From positions 21,970 to 85,969 of IMG/VR virus record IMGVR_UViG_3300028299_000002: a DNA stretch of 64,000 nt. One strand, 5' to 3'. A program made the translations under genes and the position numbers. This stretch comes from a virus. A model generated the notes under the pieces. The model was not told the DNA's origin. It saw only the letters and a program-made list of their open reading frames with translations, and made no database searches. This document shows, in pieces, positions 1,489 through 63,965 of this stretch; within the stretch, counting starts at the first letter, position 1; each line of letters opens with the position of its first letter.

Positions 1489-3087
1489 CTATAAAATTAA
1501 ATGACCATTAAAAACAGAATTATAGTTGCTTGTCAATATATAAATTGACGATCCTGTATTCTGAATAATTCTTGAATATACCGTATCTGCTACTGTTAGT
1601 GCAACATCTAAGCTAAAACCAGCCGTCCAATAGAACGCACTACCATTACCATAATATCTTCTTTGAACAACTGGCACTGCATTGACATATAGATAGATAT
1701 AAATATATTTATCTACTGCAAACGTAAACGTATCAAAAGTTAAATTCATATCAAAATGATAATGGCCTGTTCTTGGTACAGTAAATACACCGGTTGCAAT
1801 GTCGTAATTATTACCAATATCATAATTTTCTGCATTTAGAATAAATGTTGTCAATGTGGCATGAGGAATTTCAAAATTAGTTCCTGATCTATATGCAGAA
1901 TACTTATGTTGGGAAATTACATTTAACTTAGTTCCACTCCCTCCGGCAATTGTTGCTCCATCTCCAGTGCCAGTTATTATTTTATTTTCATCCACACTTT
2001 CGGCAGCCATCATCGCCAGGGCGACACCAAGATTTTTAATATTAACAATGGCTCCACTGCCACTACCCTCTAATGCACCACCAACAAAGGCCGTATTCTT
2101 TAATTTGTTATGATCAACGCTTTCGGCGGCCATCATAGCCAATACCACACCCAGATCACTGATTTTAGGTTTAACACCACTACCACCTTCTAATCCGGCC
2201 CCAAATGTTGTATTGATTATCTTATTCTCATCAACACTATTATTAGCCATTTTAGCTAGTGTAATAATGGTGTCCATTAATTCTACTGTCCGTAACCCCG
2301 ATATTGCAAATTGATTGCTGCTGCGTAAATCGGTTGCCGTCCACACGCCAAGCGCGTAATCACACTTCGCCAATACATATTCACCATCGGCCAATACCGG
2401 TGTGACGGTCGTTGTTCGGAATGTAAATGAATTATAGGAATAGAGGCTCTTGTCACCGCCCGGAGGATAACCCTCAAAATATGTACCCTTGACTGTAAAT
2501 CTCAACCCGGATTCATTTGCCACAAAATCTTCTACGGTATGTAAATGAGTATCATCGCCAACCGATTGTATGATATAATCACCATCATTGCCAAATGCGC
2601 TGCCGGACACGGTGATAGTCTGTCCTACCTTGACATATTTCGTGAACCATGTCTCTGTTCCCTGAACGCTATTAGACCCCGCAGTTACGGTGATATCTCC
2701 TATATCGATACTGTGGGTCAACTCCGATGTTGAAATAACAATCCATTGCTCGATGCCTGCCGTAAAATCCAATGGATTGTCACCGGTCAATCCGCCAGGA
2801 ACCAATCCCGGTACAGGGACCAATCGGTCTGTTGCCGTTCTGACACCATTTGTATTAATAACGATCTCATTATCACTATTGATAATATATCCCGGCGCAA
2901 CCCGCCAGTCACCGGCAGGATCAAGGTCGATTAAAAAACTCCTGTCGGAATCGGTTTTCATTACCACGCCCGGCACTGACATTCGCAAACCGATATATTC
3001 ACGGATTGTATCTTCAATTAATAATCTAAAAATCGACAGGCTATCAGCCGTCAATTTCAAACCATTACCAAGAATTACTTCATTCAT
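1489..3087 (-). CDS. Tail fibre / receptor-binding protein with C-terminal C1q-like domain
   Basis: Three AxMAxxSVDxNKI fibre repeats; C-terminal ..NYDIATGVFTVPRTGHYHFDMNL.. C1q signature; follows the baseplate genes. Confidence 0.75.
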   Translation of the reverse strand: MNEVILGNGLKLTADSLSIFRLLIEDTIREYIGLRMSVPGVVMKTDSDRSFLIDLDPAGDWRVAPGYIINSDNEIVINTNGVRTATDRLVPVPGLVPGGLTGDNPLDFTAGIEQWIVISTSELTHSIDIGDITVTAGSNSVQGTETWFTKYVKVGQTITVSGSAFGNDGDYIIQSVGDDTHLHTVEDFVANESGLRFTVKGTYFEGYPPGGDKSLYSYNSFTFRTTTVTPVLADGEYVLAKCDYALGVWTATDLRSSNQFAISGLRTVELMDTIITLAKMANNSVDENKIINTTFGAGLEGGSGVKPKISDLGVVLAMMAAESVDHNKLKNTAFVGGALEGSGSGAIVNIKNLGVALAMMAAESVDENKIITGTGDGATIAGGSGTKLNVISQHKYSAYRSGTNFEIPHATLTTFILNAENYDIGNNYDIATGVFTVPRTGHYHFDMNLTFDTFTFAVDKYIYIYLYVNAVPVVQRRYYGNGSAFYWTAGFSLDVALTVADTVYSRIIQNTGSSIYILTSNYNSVFNGHLIL

Positions 3088-4285: not shown

Positions 4286-5419
4286 TCACAATGATGGATG
4301 TAAATCCAGATTTATAGATATAGAACTATTATCCATGTGGACCAGGGTAATATTTTCCAACAATGGAATTGAGTTATAGGCCACTTCAATATCAGCAGAC
4401 GGTGTGAAATTCGGAACGTCCACATCATCAATTAATTCATCATTCAAAAATATTTGGAGTATATCATCGCTATCAACATCCGTTCCCAGTACCCATGTTC
4501 TAAAATCCAGATATTCCATGATTGAATCAGCAACGGAAATGAATACATCATTTAGAGTATTACCAGCCACCGGCCTCACAATTGCATATATATCAACTAT
4601 CGTCGTCGGTAAATCAAGCATAGTGATTTGTGGTAGAATTATCCAATTATCATTCAAATACTTTTTAACGTATGCTTTTTGCGCTGTCGATAGATACGTG
4701 CAACTTCTGGTAATCGTATAGATATTGATAATATTTTCACCAATTGCTTTTTCAACAAAAACCCGGTTTATATCCGAAATGGCCTCCTTACATGCTTCAC
4801 GAACAAAAGCCTCAGTAGATTTATTAAGAATGCTAATCTGGTTTTTGATCCGGTATCGATATTCTTCATCACTTTCAATGTCTGTACCGTAATAAGCCGG
4901 TAATGGATTGGAAACGCTATCAACCCCAACAATCGCAACAACCAATTTATTGACCGTATTTTCAGCCACATTGGTAGCGGCTCCGGTTGCCGTACAATTA
5001 GCAAGTACCGATGCTCCCAATGCCTCACTTCCAAATGTATAACCACCATCCGTATTGATTGTTATTTCGTTCTGTGTTTCAAATACATAGCCATGATCAC
5101 CGGTTATTTGTGTTTTTTCCGGTATAACTGTCGTATTTATACCCTGAAAGACCAATAATACCTGAGAAGCCGATGTACTTAACCGCGCAATTCCTCTATT
5201 TAACCCGTATATATCCAAATCATCATCAGACGATGTACTAAGAAACAGGTTTTTTATTTTCTGGCCGTAATCATACCACAATTCGGCCAATCTACGGGCA
5301 ATAGAAATAAACAATGCTCTGATCACACTGCCCGATCCAAAATAGGTTACTGTATCCTGGGCAACGGTAAAATCCTGTATTAACTCTTTTTCAATATCTT
5401 TTTCGGTTTTGATTGACAT
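4286..5419 (-). CDS. Baseplate J-like protein
   Basis: GSVIRALF, LDIYGLNRGIAR, GTDIESDEEYRYRI motifs. Confidence 0.9.
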   Translation of the reverse strand: MSIKTEKDIEKELIQDFTVAQDTVTYFGSGSVIRALFISIARRLAELWYDYGQKIKNLFLSTSSDDDLDIYGLNRGIARLSTSASQVLLVFQGINTTVIPEKTQITGDHGYVFETQNEITINTDGGYTFGSEALGASVLANCTATGAATNVAENTVNKLVVAIVGVDSVSNPLPAYYGTDIESDEEYRYRIKNQISILNKSTEAFVREACKEAISDINRVFVEKAIGENIINIYTITRSCTYLSTAQKAYVKKYLNDNWIILPQITMLDLPTTIVDIYAIVRPVAGNTLNDVFISVADSIMEYLDFRTWVLGTDVDSDDILQIFLNDELIDDVDVPNFTPSADIEVAYNSIPLLENITLVHMDNSSISINLDLHPSL

Positions 5420-5428
5420 CTTTTGCCC

Positions 5429-5680
5429 CTATACTTCAATTATTTCGTTTGAATTGACCGCCCGGATTTCCGAAGATACACTATAAGATTCATCGTCTTC
5501 GGTAATTTCAATATTTATGATCTCTGAAATACGCTGATCATTTGAATAGGCCGCCGATAATCTTGCTTTGATTACCGATGGAATAATCTCCGGCTCATAA
5601 CCTCCGGTCATAATTTCCTCTAATATAGGAAGTGTGTAATTTTGAATACTCTGTTTTAATGTATCGGTATATTCACTCAT
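5429..5680 (-). CDS. gp25/gpW-like baseplate wedge subunit (C-terminal part)
   Basis: DQRISEIINIEI motif; immediately upstream of J. Confidence 0.6.
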   Translation of the reverse strand: MSEYTDTLKQSIQNYTLPILEEIMTGGYEPEIIPSVIKARLSAAYSNDQRISEIINIEITEDDESYSVSSEIRAVNSNEIIEV

Positions 5681-55742: not shown

Positions 55743-57599
55743 TTATTTATATTTGATAATTAGGTTTACGGCACCATTATTTGATTTCTTTAATTGCTTG
55801 GTTCGCTTGATGGATTTAAGTAAACTTTTGCCAATATTCTCCGGCTCCTCATCGGTTTCATCCCAATTCGGGTATTCGTTATATTCGGTTTCTTCTTCCT
55901 CGCCATTAGGATTTTCGCCGCCATTATTACCCTCTTGTTCCTGCTGTGCCTCTTGGGATTTTGTCATCAGTGCATTACTGACCAGTTGGATTACCTGTGG
56001 ATTACAGATTCCCGGAAGATCGTAAATATTGACATCCCCATACTTCAACTCAAATTTCTTTTTATCATTTTCAACCAGCAGATCATTGATACTGCATGTC
56101 GTCGCCAAACGGTCTTTATCAATTACCAGTTTCTTAGTCTGGTCCTCGACATCCAAACCACTCCAAACAATCCCGACTCCCTCAATACCGGTTATTTCCT
56201 CAAAAATGCCGCAATTATTGAGCAAGTCCGCAATGTTGTTCAGAAATCGCCGTAGCCCTGGGTCTTGACTGCGAACCATTGGGCCTTCTTCTTCCTCTTT
56301 ACCAAACAAACGTTGTTTGCCAATAGAGTTTTTATTGCTCGACATACTGACATCTTCAGGATCAAGCCCCTCAAATACACATAACCATGAAAACAGTGTT
56401 GACATCCAGAGAAAATCTTCCATTTCCTTACTTGTTTCATGGAATTTGATAAACTTGGGATCAACACCTTTGGGTAATCCAACAACCGGGTATTTCCATT
56501 TATCGTTACGGCCAGCCGATATTCCCCAGATCAATTTCCTGAATAATGTCATTTCCTGTTTTGAAAACCCGTCTTCCGTGGCACCGATAACCGCAATCAT
56601 ACCCTTTGGCATTGTATTGGCCGAACGCCTGGTCACGTTATAAGTCACTGAATCAACAATATAGCGCATAACACTGATAGCTCGTTCTGCGACACTGTAA
56701 CCCTTAAATTGATGCTCAATATCTGTTGTCCCGTAAAAATGACTGAATATCAATCTTTCCGGTGTAAACAGGGCAACCAGTTTCAATTGACGGTCAACCA
56801 TTCCGTAACGGTACTCATCCTGGTAATAGGTTTTATATCCTAACAGTTGTTCTTCAGATTGACGCTTTGTTACCGGCTGATAAAAATCCATGTAGTTTGA
56901 TGTCTGCTCCAACCCCTCAACTTTAGGAACAATGGGATAGATAATGCCAGAATCAACAATACACATAGCCGATGGCTTGCCACGATTATTATATTTTTTA
57001 TTGAAACTGGCATTCTCTCTTACAACCTCAATTGCCACTTTATCTAAATCGAATATGTCATTATAGCAATAGTAAAGAAATGAACTCATAGATGGCATTT
57101 CAACATTGGGAACATAAAAGAATCTTCGGCTTATCTGATTTTCAACCTGTTCACATGTTTTCTTTTGAGCTGCCGTCAAACTCTTTTGCCGGTCAAGTAG
57201 AGTAAGATTAAATCCCGGATTTTTACCATCACTGATCTTGGCAAATTCCATTATCTGATTATAGCGATATGACTTGATCAGCTGGGCAGGCATGGATCGC
57301 CCGGCGTTTCTTAATGTCCGATAATTCGTAGACTCTGGCAAGAAATCATAATTGTTGATTGAATTTCGGCTGGTTTCAACATCAAACATCAATGACATTA
57401 AATGTTGAATTGTGGATTGGTCATCCGCCATTTTTTCAGATACGTAAGAATTGTACGCTTTCAACATTTCCGGGTCTTTTAAAGCTTCGTCGATTTCGGA
57501 CAGAATACCTTCTTTCTGCGCCTTTGATAACCATAACTTAGATTGCTTTAAAAAACCTTCCTTTAAATCATTTTCGATTTCAGGTGATGGATCGGCCAT
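55743..57599 (-). CDS. Portal protein
   Basis: KGYSVAE..YN..R..PKGMI, FLWMSTLFSWLCVFEGLDPEDV, DPGLRRFL; acidic tail. Confidence 0.9.
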   Translation of the reverse strand: MADPSPEIENDLKEGFLKQSKLWLSKAQKEGILSEIDEALKDPEMLKAYNSYVSEKMADDQSTIQHLMSLMFDVETSRNSINNYDFLPESTNYRTLRNAGRSMPAQLIKSYRYNQIMEFAKISDGKNPGFNLTLLDRQKSLTAAQKKTCEQVENQISRRFFYVPNVEMPSMSSFLYYCYNDIFDLDKVAIEVVRENASFNKKYNNRGKPSAMCIVDSGIIYPIVPKVEGLEQTSNYMDFYQPVTKRQSEEQLLGYKTYYQDEYRYGMVDRQLKLVALFTPERLIFSHFYGTTDIEHQFKGYSVAERAISVMRYIVDSVTYNVTRRSANTMPKGMIAVIGATEDGFSKQEMTLFRKLIWGISAGRNDKWKYPVVGLPKGVDPKFIKFHETSKEMEDFLWMSTLFSWLCVFEGLDPEDVSMSSNKNSIGKQRLFGKEEEEGPMVRSQDPGLRRFLNNIADLLNNCGIFEEITGIEGVGIVWSGLDVEDQTKKLVIDKDRLATTCSINDLLVENDKKKFELKYGDVNIYDLPGICNPQVIQLVSNALMTKSQEAQQEQEGNNGGENPNGEEEETEYNEYPNWDETDEEPENIGKSLLKSIKRTKQLKKSNNGAVNLIIKYK

Positions 57600-57912: not shown

Positions 57913-58155
57913 TTATTTGCGTATTTGGTGGGTAAGTTGTAGGTATTTGGTATAGTGATAACCCGGAGGTGATCGGGCGTTCCTAAATATGATTGTTAAT
58001 ATATCTATGGACCGCAATGGCACAATTAGAATATTATGCCATATTTCATTATTGATATTGTGGGGAATGTAATCATCGAAAAATCCTTTAGAAAAGGTAT
58101 CGCTACTATAATATAGACTGCTGCAATATAATACTATTACTGGAAATTGGTTCAT
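57913..58155 (-). CDS. Hypothetical protein
   Basis: ATGA overlap with the upstream ORF; composition unconvincing. Confidence 0.3.
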   Translation of the reverse strand: MNQFPVIVLYCSSLYYSSDTFSKGFFDDYIPHNINNEIWHNILIVPLRSIDILTIIFRNARSPPGYHYTKYLQLTHQIRK

Positions 58156-58505
58156 CGTAATTGTGCCCGGACAGGTTTAAATTTTAATCGTAGGTATTCA
58201 AGAACTTTCGACCAGCCGATTCTTTCATTAACAACTTTGGGATTTTCAATTAATGTAAATAGATGTTTTATTATTTTTATGATATCAGGATCGTCTATAA
58301 TCCCTTCGGTAAGACGATAACAATTAATCCAATTACTCGAATCACATTTCATCAATATAGCATATTCATCAAAATCAAGATTAACAGCAATAACACCACG
58401 CCTAAATCCTTTTAATTCTTTGGGATATTCTGGTGGCGGGGACTCAAGACGATGTATTTCCTTGAATTTCCGTGCTTTTGCATATTTATCTTTATAATAA
58501 TTCAT
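58152..58505 (-). CDS. Hypothetical protein
   Basis: 117-aa ORF. Confidence 0.6.
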   Translation of the reverse strand: MNYYKDKYAKARKFKEIHRLESPPPEYPKELKGFRRGVIAVNLDFDEYAILMKCDSSNWINCYRLTEGIIDDPDIIKIIKHLFTLIENPKVVNERIGWSKVLEYLRLKFKPVRAQLR

Positions 58506-58535
58506 TCAACCTTGCAAGGATAGCATATACACTGG

Positions 58536-59339
58536 TTATGTTGCTTCAATTCGTTTTTTTGCAATCTCAAAGTATTTCTCGTCTTTTTCTATACCAATAA
58601 ATTTTCGATTTAAATTTTTACAGGCAACACCTGTTGTCCCAGAACCAGCGGCAAAATCAAGTACCGTTTCGCCCTCGTTCGTGTAGGTCTTGATTAGGTA
58701 TTCCATTAGCGCTACTGGTTTTTGAGTTGGGTGGGTACTTTTATGACGAGGTACACTTTTGAAAAGTTTCACACTCGTTGGGTATCTACCATCTTTATAT
58801 TTATCCCAACTTCCTTGTATTATTTTTTTTGTATGATGCTCTGTATTATACTCTCTTGTTCCACCCTTTCCTGTACTATGGGCGTTTTCTCTTTTCTCCA
58901 TTATTGGATTGTAGGTAGTCCTTTCCTTGGCAAAAATTAACACATTTTCATGTTTCTTAGTAGGCATATATTTTGCTGAAAAAACTCCTGTGGGAATTGA
59001 TTTCTCCCAAATCCACTCATATCTAAACATCTTCATATTGCTTGAAATAAGCGTCGTGGTAAACGGCTGAGAAGCAGTTAATACAATGGCTCCGTTCGGC
59101 TTAATAACTCGCTTCAGATGCTCCCACATCGACTCTAAGGGTATAACCGAATCCCACTTACACGCAGTCGTACCGTAAGGTGGATCAGTAATTATAGCGT
59201 CTATACTTTGGTCTGGAATCATCGGCATAATATCAAGACAATCGCCAAGATGCAATCTAACCATTGTCTGGAGATAACGACCAGAGCTGTTCGCCGTTTC
59301 CGGTTTTGCTATCTCAATATTGGTTTGTACGTCATTCAT
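58536..59339 (-). CDS. DNA N6-adenine/N4-cytosine methyltransferase (beta class), cassette 4
   Basis: LHLGDCL, ITDPPYG, HPTQKPVALMEYLIKTYTNEGETVLDFAAGSGTT. Confidence 0.9.
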   Translation of the reverse strand: MNDVQTNIEIAKPETANSSGRYLQTMVRLHLGDCLDIMPMIPDQSIDAIITDPPYGTTACKWDSVIPLESMWEHLKRVIKPNGAIVLTASQPFTTTLISSNMKMFRYEWIWEKSIPTGVFSAKYMPTKKHENVLIFAKERTTYNPIMEKRENAHSTGKGGTREYNTEHHTKKIIQGSWDKYKDGRYPTSVKLFKSVPRHKSTHPTQKPVALMEYLIKTYTNEGETVLDFAAGSGTTGVACKNLNRKFIGIEKDEKYFEIAKKRIEAT

Positions 59340-59366
59340 GGTCGTATCTCAGACTGATCGTTCGGC
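59255..59366 (-). repeat. attC-like site D
   Basis: GCCGAAC-GATCA-GTCT-GAGATA-CGACC ... GGTCG-T-TATCTC-C-AGAC-AATG-GTTAGAT. Confidence 0.8.
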
Positions 59367-59714
59367 TTCATAAACGCGATCCAGTGTGTTTGATTCTGCT
59401 TGCCGCTTTTATGCCCAAACAGCGGACGGTGCGGAGTCAGTGGTAGGATTTCTTTGACCGGCACATCTTTATCGTTCCATTTGAAGATTAGTGTCCCATT
59501 TGGACGTAGCACGCGAAAACATTCAGCGAAGCCCATTGCCAGCATGTTGCGCCAGTCTCCCATTAGCACGCCATATTGGTTCGCCATCACCGCGCCGCTC
59601 AATGTAGTGCGGTGTGGAGGGTCAAATACCACGAGCGCAAACGTGTCGGACGGAAACGGTAGATTTGAGAAGTCTGCCTGCACATCTGGTTGTACCAGGT
59701 ATCCAACACAGGCG
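59336..59714 (-). pseudogene. SAM-dependent methyltransferase (DPPH type), internally deleted/frameshifted, cassette 3
   Basis: PPVLD (motif I start) in one frame, then LVQPDVQADFSNLPF..VFDPPH..CFRVLRPNGTLIFKW in another; most of motif I missing. Confidence 0.65.
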
Positions 59715-59970
59715 GAAATGAATCCGAACCCGCGTTTGCAGATAACGAGGCGAGCTGTTCACCTTGCTCTGCTGGCTCACCAAATAAAGCATGTTCAAGT
59801 TTTAATCTTATTCCGTAGTGTAATAGTTGTCGTCCAAGATTCTTCGTGACAATATTATTTTCATGTTCGTAAAAAACATCCCATTCAAGAATATAGTTTA
59901 TCTCTTTGTCTGTAAGTATTATGGGATGTTCGCCAGCGAGATTTTTCGATTTTGTCATAGTCCCATTCAT
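59599..59970 (-). CDS. ORF starting in the attC C loop and reading into cassette 3
   Basis: GAGGTG RBS inside the left arm; MNGTMTK..GEQLASLSANAGSDSFPPVLD. Confidence 0.5.
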   Translation of the reverse strand: MNGTMTKSKNLAGEHPIILTDKEINYILEWDVFYEHENNIVTKNLGRQLLHYGIRLKLEHALFGEPAEQGEQLASLSANAGSDSFPPVLDTWYNQMCRQTSQIYRFRPTRLRSWYLTLHTALH

Positions 59971-60004
59971 ATTTCACCTCGTATCTGATACGCCATCGTT
60001 CTGT
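59723..60004 (-). repeat. attC-like site C with an enlarged loop containing an ORF start
   Basis: ACAGAAC-GATG-GCGTAT-CAGATA-CGAGG ... CCTCG-T-TATCTG-C-AAACGC-GG-GTTCGGA. Confidence 0.7.
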
Positions 60005-60005
60005 A

Positions 60006-60215
60006 TCAGAGCGGATTTTGCAACAATTCCCATATTTTTTGAGTACTTATTTGTACCGCATTGAGTTGCGGTTTTTTATTATCAGTATCAGCGGTAAATT
60101 TTACAAGACAGGCAATTTTACGTTCACCCAACATTTTCCATAAATTAAAAATATCGTCATCGTTTTCGGGTACAAAAACAATATCATTCTCTTTTTCATT
60201 ACACGTTACTTTCAT
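60006..60215 (-). CDS. Hypothetical protein, cassette 2
   Basis: MKVTCNEKEN...; stop TGA followed directly by TACAGAAC. Confidence 0.65.
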   Translation of the reverse strand: MKVTCNEKENDIVFVPENDDDIFNLWKMLGERKIACLVKFTADTDNKKPQLNAVQISTQKIWELLQNPL

Positions 60216-60252
60216 CTTTTTCTCTCTTTCTGCTCTGACCAGCCCTTCGGGT

Positions 60253-60346
60253 ACAGAACCAGAGCGTGGACGCAACGCCTTATGCCGTTGCGTGGTTGTT
60301 AGTTTTTTCAAATATCATCGGCGTGTGTCACGCTTGGTCGTTAGGG
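60253..60346 (-). repeat. attC-like site B
   Basis: CCCTAAC-GACCA-AGCGT-GACAC-ACGCC ... GGCGT-T-GCGTC-C-ACGCT-CTG-GTTCTGT. Confidence 0.8.
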
Positions 60347-60347
60347 G

Positions 60348-61193
60348 CTATTCATCAAGACAAATAAACTTGTTGGCGGCATTTTCCCAATCATCCCCCG
60401 GTTCTGCATTTACCGCAAATTCATGCAAAAAATCACCGTTCCAATCCTGGTCATTTTCAAGACTTAATATATCCTCGGCGGTCATTTTGCTTGTAAACCC
60501 ACGACCAGACTTGTCTTTCCACATAAAGTTTTTCATCTCTAACTCCTCTAAATTATTCGCGTTAAAAAAAGCATAAGCAAAACCCATTGGAGTTTCACTT
60601 CGTAATTCTTTTGTAGCACTGCTTTTGCCACCATATTTCTGTGTTTTACTTCCGTATGAATATCTTACAGGCTTTACAACGTTTGTTGGTTTTGGCTTGT
60701 TAAATTTTCCGAACAGTGCGGTTTTTTTTGAATATTCGTCGCCGTACCAATATGGCTGGAAATACCAGGGATTTCCCAACTCGGGTATCAGTTTTTTTAT
60801 CCTGCCAACAGGATTTTCAATAGCATAAAATAGTGGCTGACATAAATCAATAATCCTTAGCGTTTGATATGTTAGTTCAATAAAATGCTCCAGACGGTTA
60901 AATTTTCCGAACAAAGTGTCTTGCGTTTTATCTTTATATTCCCAGTGTTTTGCCCCTGAAACAGCAAAATCTGTGCATGGTGGAGCCGCCAATATACCGT
61001 CAACTGTTTCGTAATTATCAAATATATTTTCATACATCCAGTCGGTATTTATATCCAAAATATTTTTACAAAAAATCGAATAATTATCATCATCTTTATT
61101 TTTCAAATCTATTCTAATCACGTTCCAACCCTTTTCGGCGTATGGTAATGACCAATTTCCGGTAAAGTCAAATAAGGATAAAAGCGTACTCAT
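60348..61193 (-). CDS. C5-cytosine methyltransferase-like protein with a C-terminal extra module, cassette 1
   Basis: LLSLFDFTG, ILAAPPCTDFAVSG, IENPVGR; tail MKNFMWKDKSGRG looks like a fused small ORF. Confidence 0.8.
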   Translation of the reverse strand: MSTLLSLFDFTGNWSLPYAEKGWNVIRIDLKNKDDDNYSIFCKNILDINTDWMYENIFDNYETVDGILAAPPCTDFAVSGAKHWEYKDKTQDTLFGKFNRLEHFIELTYQTLRIIDLCQPLFYAIENPVGRIKKLIPELGNPWYFQPYWYGDEYSKKTALFGKFNKPKPTNVVKPVRYSYGSKTQKYGGKSSATKELRSETPMGFAYAFFNANNLEELEMKNFMWKDKSGRGFTSKMTAEDILSLENDQDWNGDFLHEFAVNAEPGDDWENAANKFICLDE

Positions 61194-61200
61194 TTATAGC

Positions 61201-61310
61201 CCCTAACCCACACATGGATTTAACGCCGTGAGCTGTTCTATGTTTGGTGATTCATTCATTTGCTTTAGACCTTCTTTTATTTCGGCGTACATCATGCGTC
61301 ATCGTTATAG
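61201..61310 (-). repeat. attC-like site A
   Basis: CTATAAC-GATGA-CGCAT-GATGT-ACGCCG ... CGGCGT-T-AAATC-C-ATGTG-TGG-GTTAGGG. Confidence 0.8.
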
Positions 61311-61571
61311 CCCGCTGGCTCGCTATTCTACTAATTCAAAAGAATATGGTGATTTCACGGCAGTAGTATCATCATCTTGTTCACAATCAGCAGTCGGCTG
61401 TATTTCATTTATTCTTATCACCCTGTTGTCAATTTCAAGAAGTTTTGTCAGATTTATTAACATCATTCGCCTTCCTTTCGCTCGCCAGCGATTTTTGAGT
61501 TTTCAAACAATTCCGGTAAAATCATGTTTTTCATAGTTGATTTCCCTTATAAAGGTTTATTGGTTTTTCAT

Positions 61572-61613
61572 TCGGCGTGAGTGAGCCTTGTCGTTATAGC
61601 CCACTGGCTCGCT
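61572..61613 (-). repeat. Orphan left arm of an attC-like site; 22-bp near-duplicate of 61302-61323
   Basis: AGCGAGCCAG(T/C)GGGCTATAACGA followed by CAAGGCTCACTCACGCCG; no matching right arm found. Confidence 0.6.
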
Positions 61614-61639
61614 TGTTAATAGTATAGCCAGTTATTATT

Positions 61640-61789
61640 TCATAACCATTTATCATCTTGTTTTGATTTAAATACCTTCCGGTAATTCTTAATTGTGGAT
61701 GGCTTACAGTTCACGTATCGAAGAATCTCCATATCCGATTTACCCTCAAGGATCATTTTACGTAACTGTTGTTTGTCGTAATTTGTCAT
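61640..61789 (-). CDS. 49-aa HTH-like protein missing from the ORF track
   Basis: MTNYDKQQLRKMILEGKSDMEILRYVNCKPSTIKNYRKVFKSKQDDKWL*; first gene after promoter copy 3. Confidence 0.5.
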   Translation of the reverse strand: MTNYDKQQLRKMILEGKSDMEILRYVNCKPSTIKNYRKVFKSKQDDKWL

Positions 61790-61819
61790 ATTATTTAATC
61801 CTGTTTATTCCTTCTATCC

Positions 61820-61848
61820 CGTAATACATGCAATTTTAGAATTGTCCC
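61820..61848 (-). promoter_or_regulatory. Conserved early-type promoter motif, copy 3 (overlaps terminase stop)
   Basis: GGGACAATTCTAAAATTGCATGTATTACG. Confidence 0.65.
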
Positions 61849-63965
61849 TTTATATCTAATTCATCGCCAATATCCAATCCTGAATTATTGCCAACGTATG
61901 CGTTTTGACCGATCATGCTAATTGCTATTTTATCGTCAATGTATTCAAATTCCATCTCACATATTTGAACATCGTATTCCTCAAACTTATATCCGATCTC
62001 ACGCATAAAGTCACAGAATTCCTTATCGTCGTTATAAATCCGATTGTACTTTTGCTGAAATCTCTTAATCCCAATCCGATACATCTCCATCCGTTTTCTG
62101 TCTTCATCGACCTCATTATCACCCTCGTAAGTTCCATCGATATCCAATGCAGTCATATTTATCCCCGATTCTATGATCTGACAAACACAGTTCGCCAATG
62201 AATCATATATATCTTTACTTTCACCGTCGGGATGATCAATCTTATTATTGTTTATCATCAATAGCATCATCATTTCCCTGATCAGTGTGGCATCATCCAG
62301 GTATTCAATTGCATTATTCCATACAAGGTGACGGACTATTTTACCCATCCGAACCTGAACCGGATTAGAGAAAAACATAGCCTCTGAACCACGTATTCCA
62401 ATATCCAACATTTTTTGACGAAGACTCTCTGATTGATAATGATCTGACCGTATTCCCCGGCTCCCCCTATATTCTGATCCCAATAGTTTTACCATGTTGT
62501 TTTCGACATTCACGTAATCAACCGGGAATTCTTTGCTTGGCTTATATTTGATAATAATATCAATCACCGGTTTGCAATTGAAGGCTATTTTTTCAACAAC
62601 CTTATTTCCGTCACTCTTATAATGTTCCAATTCAAGAGTAACAACCTCATGGCTCAATACATCCGGATAACCGCCAACTATGATAAAACTGTCACCGGTT
62701 TTACTTGGATCATACCCCCAATACCGGCGGCGATCATCTCTCAGTGTCTTAATTATTTCAATGGCCGTGAATCTACGAATACCGTCCTCACCACGGACAT
62801 TGACCAGGCGTTCGGTTAATGCACTTTTATATTGTACCGGATTTACCAATTTCGGATTTGCACACTCATGTATTTTATCCATATAGGGCATGAAGAATCC
62901 AAACCTGTTCGGCGGTACTTCGGCTTTCCATCGCCTGTTGACATCAATGGTATCAGCTCCGGGTTTATTTAATGCCTTTTGGTAATCTGCTTCACTCAGT
63001 TTCGGATTGAATACATGAGCATAAAACCACGCAACTAAAATATGGTCATTGATCTCTATTGTATTTGCCATTGCCTTTTTAGCATGATTTAGATACTGCT
63101 CAACCAATAGATCATTTACTTCCTGTTCAGGGTATGCGAACATCATGCCCAACTTAAATCCAACAATAAATCGTGTGTTCTGATTACCGTTTGCAGTTTC
63201 ATATTGGTGCTTTGCCGTAGCATATTTAATCGGTGTGTTCGCCCGGCTCGGTTCATCGGTGATCCTCATCCAGATTGCATATCCTTCAACACTCTTGGCC
63301 GTTGTGTCCATTACATAAATACTGATCCCGCCGTATATCCGATTTCTGTGTGGAATATTAATACTTTCAGTCTTGACATCTTTCTGTCCATATTCCCTGA
63401 TCTTTAATCCAATATTTTGAGAATACCAGTTATGACCGGTTGCCGGATCAATGGTATTAATCATAACCCTTGTTAAACGACCAAAAAATACACGCCTAGC
63501 CTGTTGTAAATTGACTTGGGAATAAATAAGCACGTCGAAATCCTCATCCTTCTGAAGATCAAAATGTTCGTGTGGGTCTTCGAGACAGCACCATAGATAA
63601 AAAGCATAATTACAGACAATCAACATAACGGTATTCTTACCACCACCCTGCCCGATCCTCAGTATTATTTCCTCAACTCCAAAAAACCAGCCGTCCTCAG
63701 TCGGTATTTCTGGAAATACACCCTTAATAACTTTCCATTGTTCAGGGGATGGCTCAACCGACCGCATATATTTCCGGACAAATATTTCAACCGTAACCGG
63801 CATGATCTGCCAGAATGGTTTGTCTATATTTTCTTCCTCTGTTTTTCTTATATAATCATTCCGTTCAGCTATAGATACAAATCGACCGAAATCCGTATTA
63901 TTAATATCATCGTTTAGCGTATATATGCTTTTTCTTAAATCCGGTTCAATAAAATGTTTATTCAT
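61836..63965 (-). CDS. terL: Terminase large subunit
   Basis: Walker A LRIGQGGGKN, ITDEP, nuclease WGYDPSKTGDS and DHP..SKDIYDSLA. Confidence 0.9.
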   Translation of the reverse strand: MNKHFIEPDLRKSIYTLNDDINNTDFGRFVSIAERNDYIRKTEEENIDKPFWQIMPVTVEIFVRKYMRSVEPSPEQWKVIKGVFPEIPTEDGWFFGVEEIILRIGQGGGKNTVMLIVCNYAFYLWCCLEDPHEHFDLQKDEDFDVLIYSQVNLQQARRVFFGRLTRVMINTIDPATGHNWYSQNIGLKIREYGQKDVKTESINIPHRNRIYGGISIYVMDTTAKSVEGYAIWMRITDEPSRANTPIKYATAKHQYETANGNQNTRFIVGFKLGMMFAYPEQEVNDLLVEQYLNHAKKAMANTIEINDHILVAWFYAHVFNPKLSEADYQKALNKPGADTIDVNRRWKAEVPPNRFGFFMPYMDKIHECANPKLVNPVQYKSALTERLVNVRGEDGIRRFTAIEIIKTLRDDRRRYWGYDPSKTGDSFIIVGGYPDVLSHEVVTLELEHYKSDGNKVVEKIAFNCKPVIDIIIKYKPSKEFPVDYVNVENNMVKLLGSEYRGSRGIRSDHYQSESLRQKMLDIGIRGSEAMFFSNPVQVRMGKIVRHLVWNNAIEYLDDATLIREMMMLLMINNNKIDHPDGESKDIYDSLANCVCQIIESGINMTALDIDGTYEGDNEVDEDRKRMEMYRIGIKRFQQKYNRIYNDDKEFCDFMREIGYKFEEYDVQICEMEFEYIDDKIAISMIGQNAYVGNNSGLDIGDELDIKGQF

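Follow-up and report, generated by a model that had tools for sequence, protein, structure and literature searches.

attC-type hairpins of an integrase-less phage array stand ahead of their genes and carry loop start codons that probably serve translation of the next gene

The stretch of DNA analysed here, referred to as the window, is 64,000 nt long and comprises bases 21970–85969 of the 90,580-nt IMG/VR virus record IMGVR_UViG_3300028299_000002, and its minus strand carries essentially all of the window genes. On this strand, within 59259–61306, lie four hairpins (A to D), each of which reads 5'-AAC, a spacer of 5–6 nt, a stem of ~15 nt, a loop, the complementary stem with two extra bases, a spacer of ~4 nt and GTT-3'; in addition there is one half-site. 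Our comparisons indicate that hairpins A–D are genuine integron attC recombination sites. With a probability of about two in three, they are attC sites of an integrase-less phage array in which the polarity of the genes is reversed and in which start codons within the hairpin loops serve translation of the next gene.

The anatomy of the hairpins was studied in an alignment (A1) of 26 phage-type sites, which were chosen partly by the pairing of their arms. AAC and GTT are invariant in all 26 aligned sites, both being imposed by the detection step. An independent search with a right-arm pattern, which hit one related viral contig (L008) and many metagenome contigs, also recovered matching left arms that start with AAC; a matching left arm lies upstream in ~70 of the metagenome contigs that have the right-arm pattern. 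In the 26 sites 96.8% of the stem cells are paired, compared with 72% in shuffles and 28–41% in slid controls, a percentage that is inflated because the sites were selected partly by pairing, which lessens its weight as support. The compensatory changes are not inflated in this way, and 12 of the 15 stem pairs are changed on both sides (107 cells versus 32 in shuffles).

Sites of the attC type have a total length of 57–141 bp, an unpaired central spacer of about 5–6 nt and a variable terminal loop, and spacers, loops and lengths of this kind were found in the phage hairpins, site C being exceptional at 274 nt. Between box and arm there is an unpaired spacer, of 5–6 nt on the left side and of 4 nt on the right, and two unpaired bases of the 3' arm (columns 90, which is a loop-proximal T, and 97 of A1) flank a helix of 6 bp. 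This anatomy agrees feature by feature with the description of the attC bottom strand given by Nivina et al. 2016 (PMC5027507), i.e. an AAC R box, an unpaired central spacer, extrahelical bases near L'' around a 6-bp stem, a conserved T and a variable terminal structure.

In addition, the phage sites have bacterial relatives. A covariance model (R1) that was built from phage sites only matches dozens of sites outside its training set in bacterial cassette arrays, with E-values from 1e-15 to 1e-6, and the matches are confined to one strand within each locus. In these arrays (L015, L069, L077 and others) the sites separate single open reading frames (ORFs) on the opposite strand, which is the canonical integron layout. 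Genome contigs that carry these sites belong to metagenome-assembled genomes (MAGs) labelled Neomarinimicrobiota, Bacteroidota or unclassified bacteria, and proteins above the curated cut-off of TIGR02249 were found in two of those genomes. In detail, a 322-aa ORF of contig L165 (1459–2427) scores 413 bits on this integron-integrase model (cut-off 265), and the order of the contig is that of a textbook integron, namely the integrase ORF on the minus strand, an attC, a 212-aa cassette ORF on the plus strand and a second attC. Both co-oriented arrays of single genes and relatives adjoining an integron integrase, which mark a family as attC, were found for these sites. The MAG that holds L165, together with L141 and L156 (G002), has seven stretches above the integron-integrase cut-off, two of which contain stop codons.

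In a canonical cassette the gene sits on the top strand of its attC, which stands at the 3' end of the gene, and the integron integrase recombines attC as a folded bottom strand. The bacterial arrays of this family conform to that arrangement and have their ORFs on the top strand, whereas the phage genes lie on the strand that has the extra bases in the 3' arm, i.e. on the bottom strand, so that a gene on the top strand with attC at its 3' end is not what the phage array shows. No reversed array was seen in bacterial genomes, where the same-strand loci L146, L147 and L133 were inspected; these loci from bacterial MAGs had been considered as same-strand arrays and turned out to be canonical or ambiguous.

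The loops of the phage sites differ from those of their bacterial relatives as well. Phage-type sites from the phage record, L008/L025, L108, L026, L119, L021, L125 and others were compared with 105 sites of the same attC family in bacterial cassette arrays. An ORF that starts with ATG in the loop and remains open through the 3' arm is present at 39 of 44 phage-type sites versus 25 of 105 bacterial sites (Fisher p = 1.3e-13), and it continues for at least 50 codons past GTT at 22 of the 44 phage-type sites versus none of the 105 bacterial ones. The loop measures about 55 nt in phage-type sites and about 77 nt in bacterial sites. About half of the phage-type loop ORFs are in-frame N-terminal fusions with the downstream gene. 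The stops of the non-fused leaders lie mostly about −8 to +22 nt from the start of the next long ORF (two lie at −26 and +47), and the stop/start junctions are often ATGA or TAAnATG overlaps. All three frames relative to the GTT box are used (23, 15 and 5 sites), and a Shine-Dalgarno (SD)-like motif is found at 23 of 43 loop starts. In minimum free energy (MFE) folds the start codons lie within the loop or at its edge, and ATGAATGA often follows directly after the arm, sometimes together with an SD motif. For some genes there is no other canonical start, among them the SPPY methyltransferase found in L108 and at the record end, which has none before its conserved core, and a 206-aa methyltransferase.

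These counts support the view that loop start codons are a systematic and non-random feature of the phage-type sites, and a translation-start or coupling role of the loops is well supported by the sequence. An earlier reading of the window, here called the original prediction, had implied that loop ATG and frame would be non-random at homologous sites, which agrees with the counts and with the genes that lack another canonical start.

The way in which such loops might act can be outlined as follows. Each phage cassette would begin with its own attC, and on the mRNA a hairpin of ~20 bp would stand just ahead of the gene, where it would make access harder for ribosomes, an effect that has been reported for attC sites. 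The loop, shortened to about 55 nt, would provide the start codon, in many sites as ATGAATGA. Initiation would take place there, in the part of the hairpin that is left exposed, and the elongating ribosomes would open up the 3' arm, after which there would be either an N-terminal fusion, as in D and in the open frame of B, or a stop at or just past the GTT box followed by re-initiation at the gene start, as in A; C would be a decayed case. The sites would be recombined by an integron integrase of the host, as homology suggests, and a host enzyme is presumed because the phage record encodes none.

Site A (61205–61306; like all features of the array described below, on the minus strand) is 102 nt long and consists of a left arm (R'–L', 61283–61306), a loop (61229–61282) and a right arm with the two extra bases (L''–R'', 61205–61228). 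Its arms pair in the MFE fold, and it scores 76.6 bits with R1 (E = 1.7e-19), being a member of the training set. The leader ORF of loop A (61203–61259) starts at ATG 61259 and encodes the 18 aa MNESPNIEQLTALNPCVG, or 30 aa when read from 61295. Its stop is a TAG (61205–61203) within GTTAGGG, the T being the final base of the GTT box and the A and G the two bases that follow, so the original prediction was correct in letting this peptide end at the GTT core. The gene of cassette 1 (60348–61193) has its own ATG at 61193, 9 nt beyond the leader stop, and encodes a C5 cytosine DNA methyltransferase of 281 aa (PF00145; phrog_757 positions 15–222 on residues 2–217).

Site D (59259–59362) measures 104 nt, with the left arm at 59340–59362, the loop at 59283–59339 and the right arm at 59259–59282, and it scores 90.3 bits with R1, D again being in the training set. 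The ATG of its loop (59339–59337) sits immediately after the left arm, overlaps the stop of the upstream ORF as ATGA and heads cassette 4 (58536–59339), a DPPY N6/N4 DNA methyltransferase of 267 aa (PF01555 over residues 46–262; phrog_12862 positions 3–122 on residues 27–146); this start had been predicted, and the first 27 residues are those quoted at the time. Loop D and the right arm supply the codons for residues 1–25, and the family body runs from Met26, the ATG of AATGGTT at 59264. As the profiles for this methyltransferase begin at residue 25–27, residues 1–25 are a predicted attC-encoded extension. A near-identical D site is present in L008/L025 with a different gene downstream.

Site C (59727–60000) is 274 nt long because of an insertion in its loop, which measures 226 nt (59751–59976). 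The attC at record positions 4364–4469 has exactly the same arms, and the loop of C is the loop of that site plus an in-frame insertion of ~57 codons, which is absent from lake-water variants of loop C (joint 59768 to 59950). The site gives only a partial match to R1 (59727–59834, E = 0.017). The loop was predicted to hold a ribosome-binding site and a coding stretch reading into cassette 3, and indeed GAGGTGAAATATG comprises the ribosome-binding site GAGGTG and the ATG at 59970 of an ORF (59599–59970, 123 aa) that takes up the 226-nt loop and continues through the right arm to 128 nt beyond GTT. Pfam and PHROG searches with this ORF gave no match. Cassette 3 (59336–59726) is a 5'-truncated methyltransferase remnant with GTG 59683 as its first canonical start (115 aa; phrog_954 positions 98–207 of 229); its homologues have 166–169 aa, and homology begins at residue 57 (about 51 in the other homologue). 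With a GC content of 52–55%, compared with about 37% around it, the truncated cassette 3 stands out and looks recently acquired and decayed.

A third C-type left arm, with GAGGTGAAACATG, is located at L006 5741–5761, where it has no normal loop and starts an ORF resembling HNH homing endonucleases (5027–5545, minus strand); downstream of this ORF on L006 follow a short C5 methyltransferase and then the complete attC 4364–4469. An exact search for the C-type left arm among viral contigs gave no matches.

Site B (60257–60342, 86 nt) has a loop of 38 nt and contains CAACGGCAT in place of the motif GAACAGCTC described below; it scores 48 bits with R1 (E = 4e-11) and is outside the training set. 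It is the weakest case, as the ATG of loop B heads an ORF of only 12 aa that ends ahead of the right arm. In cassette 2 (ORF 60006–60311) the reading frame that TTG 60311 of loop B opens has no stop across the right arm and is that of the likely start, ATG 60215, so that loop B, when read from the TTG, is in frame with cassette 2 as predicted. The product of cassette 2 has 70 aa and no known family, and a paralogue is found at record positions 1158–1427.

Half-site 0 (61576–61595) resembles a left arm, is without a matching right arm and may be the remnant of a lost cassette. The same 23-nt repeat, a small hairpin ending in TATAAC, precedes half-site 0 and attC A (stretches 61576–61613 and 61302–61324).

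The window has three copies of the motif GAACAGCTC, which the original prediction had noticed in loops A, C and D just before the right arm; each copy lies on the minus strand, 4 nt ahead of the right-arm CGTT, and shuffles give 0.12. A longer right-arm pattern has three matches versus 0.03 expected, and in the whole 90.6-kb record there are six copies of GAACAGCTC, again all on the minus strand. In detail, ACAGC(T), mostly inside GAACAGCTY, lies 4 nt before the L'' arm (window positions 59284–59292, 59752–59760 and 61230–61238) and never varies among the phage sites and has also been conserved in bacterial sites belonging to this family, although the remainder of the loop is variable. As it is equally conserved in bacterial sites in which that strand is non-coding, it is a feature of the attC family at the DNA level and not a translation signal. 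Among phages GAACAGCTC is read in all three frames. At L008 380–495 (minus strand) the motif and the right arm encode, in the third frame, the hydrophobic, signal-peptide-like N-terminus (MKKSKLLKKLTALIVICILW...) of a 137-aa protein.

Since the phage genes occupy the bottom strand, the 5' end of each site is where the canonical crossover (AA|C of R') falls, and loop, leader and downstream gene would therefore form one cassette. Among pairs of same-type attC sites in different contigs, the right flank alone is shared in three phage pairs and one bacterial pair and the left flank alone in none, which speaks for an attC that forms the 5' end of its own cassette and against a module for any downstream gene. 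The original prediction of a portable module for whichever gene lands downstream is not borne out, since crossover geometry and right-flank-only sharing (four pairs versus none) put the attC in the downstream gene's own cassette. A crossover at the GTT end was considered, since one gene has different upstream attC sites in two contigs; the flank test favours the canonical AAC end as the likely crossover point.

Leaders and genes have been combined in more than one way. The A-type leader was found in three contigs, where it stops before the C5 methyltransferase (window), is fused to the 390-aa SPPY methyltransferase (L108) or is fused to a third methyltransferase (L125). The SPPY gene in the phage record has a different attC leader from that in L108, joined at the same base, and the leader of the site at record positions 2980–3081 is followed by a C5 methyltransferase here and by the 206-aa methyltransferase in L008 and L082. 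These in-frame exchanges at the GTT box show that leaders and genes have, by some route, entered new pairings.

Contigs from lake metagenomes diverge exactly at the GTT ends 59259, 59726 and 61205 and at the AAC ends 61303/61307 and 60001. Lake contigs, one of them from an RNA library, also diverge at 60262 inside the right arm of B into another attC type; two RNA-library contigs break at 61303 and 60262. One side of the contig joint 58421 to 60373 comprises only 21 nt. Metatranscriptome contigs (59968–60262 and 61303–61467) cover cassette 2 and a 47-aa ORF of related variants, DNA carry-over being possible; their breaks lie at 60262, at 59968 (the loop-C start codon) and at 61303 (the AAC end of A), from where they continue into other attC types. 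At L008 1821–2640 (minus strand) the N-terminus of an attC-led methyltransferase stops after ~55 residues and is followed by a 204-aa ORF and by another methyltransferase gene, which is complete, so that this stretch may represent an insertion or a decayed cassette.

Several points weigh against the reading of these hairpins as recombining attC sites whose loops start translation of the next gene. The MFE folds have z-scores of modest size (−0.5 to −3.3), and among them the hairpin at record positions 2980–3081 is not recovered as drawn; thermodynamics alone was considered as proof and dropped on account of the unconvincing z-scores, the case being carried by covariation instead. A search of the 90.6-kb record for a tyrosine recombinase with PF00589 gave no match at E ≤ 1, which leaves recombination of the phage sites putative. 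Both flanks differ in 15 of 20 phage-type pairs of same-type sites, and equally so in bacterial arrays, so that the linkage between attC and downstream gene rests on few cases. The loop-C ORF is out of frame with the truncated methyltransferase of cassette 3, and the open frame of B, read from TTG 60311, has no loop ATG. Finally, D and a 522-aa C5 methyltransferase have an internal Met exactly at the start of the family, and the fused leaders could be dispensable there. The original prediction is supported in part. That the site doubles as a translation-initiation or coupling module agrees with the phage-type and bacterial counts of loop ORFs and with the leader stops near gene starts; GAACAGCTC is not a translation signal, C is out of frame, and the proposal that ribosome traffic may gate hairpin folding finds no support in these results.

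From these points an alternative could be built in which the attC sites are real and the loop frames incidental, the genes starting after GTT and the upstream ORFs being by-products of a compact one-stranded genome. It would account for the internal Met codons at the family starts of D and of the 522-aa C5 methyltransferase, for the own ATG of cassette 1, for the absence of a loop ATG from the open frame of B and for SD-like motifs at only about half of the loop starts; moreover, the right-arm consensus is stop-free in two of three frames, so that open frames are easily obtained. We nevertheless regard it as unlikely, because bacterial sites with the same arms have an ATG-started open frame in 24% of cases compared with 89% of phage sites, because the SPPY and 206-aa methyltransferases would be left without a canonical start and because most leaders stop only a few bases away from the start that follows. 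Likewise, it does not account for phage loops that are uniformly about 55 nt long with ATGAATGA at the edge of the arm.

A second alternative accepts the origin of the hairpins and denies their present recombination in phages. The sites would be fossil attC, kept as RNA hairpins (translational operators, processing sites or weak terminators), and shuffling would be due to homologous or illegitimate recombination at repeats. This fits with the lack of an integrase in the record, with the pairs that mostly differ on both flanks, with break points that fall on the GTT end in addition to the canonical AAC end and with the fact that a hairpin on the sense strand is necessarily present in the mRNA. 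However, the features that an integrase recognizes have been kept (invariant AAC and GTT, two extra bases with 6-bp spacing and an unpaired spacer), although they are irrelevant to an RNA stem. The break points are base-exact at boxes of 3–4 nt, which are too short for homologous exchange, and a single shared flank is always the one that a canonical crossover predicts (four versus none). We therefore consider this alternative, too, to be improbable.

Promoter-early stem-loop (PeSL) cassettes of T4-type phages, reportedly described by Arbiol et al. in 2010, are likewise structured repeats on either side of small accessory genes in hyperplastic regions of phage genomes and have been proposed to shuffle them; PeSLs, however, consist of promoter and stem-loop repeats and are thought to act through homologous recombination, whereas the phage sites have attC anatomy and relatives in bacterial integrons. 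That the hairpins are a phage-specific structured repeat of this kind, or like RNase III sites, and unrelated to integrons is very improbable indeed, since even though a search of 58000–62000 against Rfam gave no credible family and all copies are co-oriented with transcription, their anatomy is that of attC feature by feature and the phage-trained model recovers dozens of sites in canonical bacterial arrays, two beside an integron integrase.

We thus return to attC sites of reversed polarity with loop start codons, parts of which resemble known systems. The layout of a complete integron, with an integron integrase gene (intI), an attI site and a cassette promoter beside the array, was not found in the phage record, and a scan of all contig loci studied (each only ~10 kb) for tyrosine-recombinase box motifs found nothing. 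As the record has no integrase, the array is of the type known as clusters of attC sites lacking integron-integrases (CALINs). CALINs have been described in temperate and virulent phages with methyltransferase cargo, and assays with IntI1 gave recombination of phage attC sites (Qi, Rajabal, Ghaly, Tetu, Gillings 2023; PMC9892861). Both there and here, integrase-less attC arrays occur in phage genomes with DNA methyltransferases among their cargo, but in the present case every gene is on the attC bottom strand and there are about 13–14 sites in one genome. Reversed polarity with loop start codons was not found in PMC9892861 or in the other literature on attC that was consulted.

The proposed translation mechanism is, by analogy, close to the coupling known from ORF-11 and short ORFs of attC sites. 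ORF-11 and ORF-18 of attI1 and short ORFs within attC relieve the block that the hairpin exerts on translation by termination and reinitiation, and a short ORF may take its stop from the GTT core box or be extended or fused when the core is without a stop (PMC8876359, reviewing Hanau-Bercot 2002 and Jacquier 2009). Leader A likewise has its own start, overlaps the recombination site and takes its stop from the GTT core. A layout of the ORF-11 type was indeed found in the phage, the TAG of leader A lying 9 nt before ATG 61193 and most phage leader stops lying near the next start. The known cases, however, concern single class 1 integron sites, are on the top strand and were found experimentally, whereas in the phage nearly every attC has such an ORF in its loop, where it runs on the bottom strand and is often a true N-terminal fusion, with a coupling that is inferred from sequence. 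Translation through cassettes has also been reported to raise downstream expression (PMC11511950).

In sedentary chromosomal integrons (e.g. the Vibrio cholerae repeats), too, near-identical attC sites stand beside unrelated genes, and the sites are about 100–125 nt long with large variable loops. Indeed, the bacterial members of the attC family to which the phage sites belong sit in sedentary-type arrays beside intI. The phage differs from these integrons in having neither integrase nor attI, in its inverted gene polarity and in its shortened, coding loops.

Around the array, the window has a 709-aa ORF in the position of a terminase (61836–63965), which has no family match and for which relatives were sought in viral contigs and none found, and a portal gene (55743–57599, phrog_11117). 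The record holds ~13–14 attC-type sites, grouped as two arrays. Outside the window, the SPPY methyltransferase gene is divided between the two ends of the record (L006 3–200 and L007 4841–5581, both minus strand), and by reference to the intact 390-aa gene in L108 only ~216 nt are absent from the record, suggesting that the genome is near-complete and circular or circularly permuted; the CheckV completeness estimate of 58% for the record is at odds with this. At least a quarter of the sampled words of the window are present in eight lake-water metagenome runs. The record thus represents a lake-water phage of roughly 91 kb with an integrase-less array of mostly DNA-methyltransferase cassettes. 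L025 carries phage replication and recombination genes; it was considered as an unrelated phage, which was dropped because its DnaC-like loader is 75% identical to that of the record, and distinct genomes only are claimed.

Integrons are usually viewed as devices of bacteria, with cassettes that have no promoter and rely on the platform to be expressed. CALINs in phages and coupling of the ORF-11 type are already known, and the advance lies in reversed polarity with coding loops, as a variant of these. Tentatively, and at somewhat less than even odds, lake phages and probably others may possess a class of reversed-polarity cassettes in which the 5' attC is both integrase substrate and translation-initiation region and which are swapped among phages, and possibly host integrons, to shuffle anti-restriction methyltransferases. 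If this is true, each cassette would be a self-contained unit at the level of translation. The array suggests a phage-adapted form of the integron, with inverted polarity and the hairpin turned into a gene start, which would solve the block that attC hairpins impose on ribosomes. It also suggests shuffling in the service of counter-defence, as the phages of a natural lake population seem to exchange orphan methyltransferases in new combinations. Finally, identical attC leaders on unrelated genes, resolved to the single base, provide a test set for the association of cassettes with attC, and as unrelated genes share one leader, joined to them in frame exactly at the GTT box, such arrays might show how new cassettes gain their attC.

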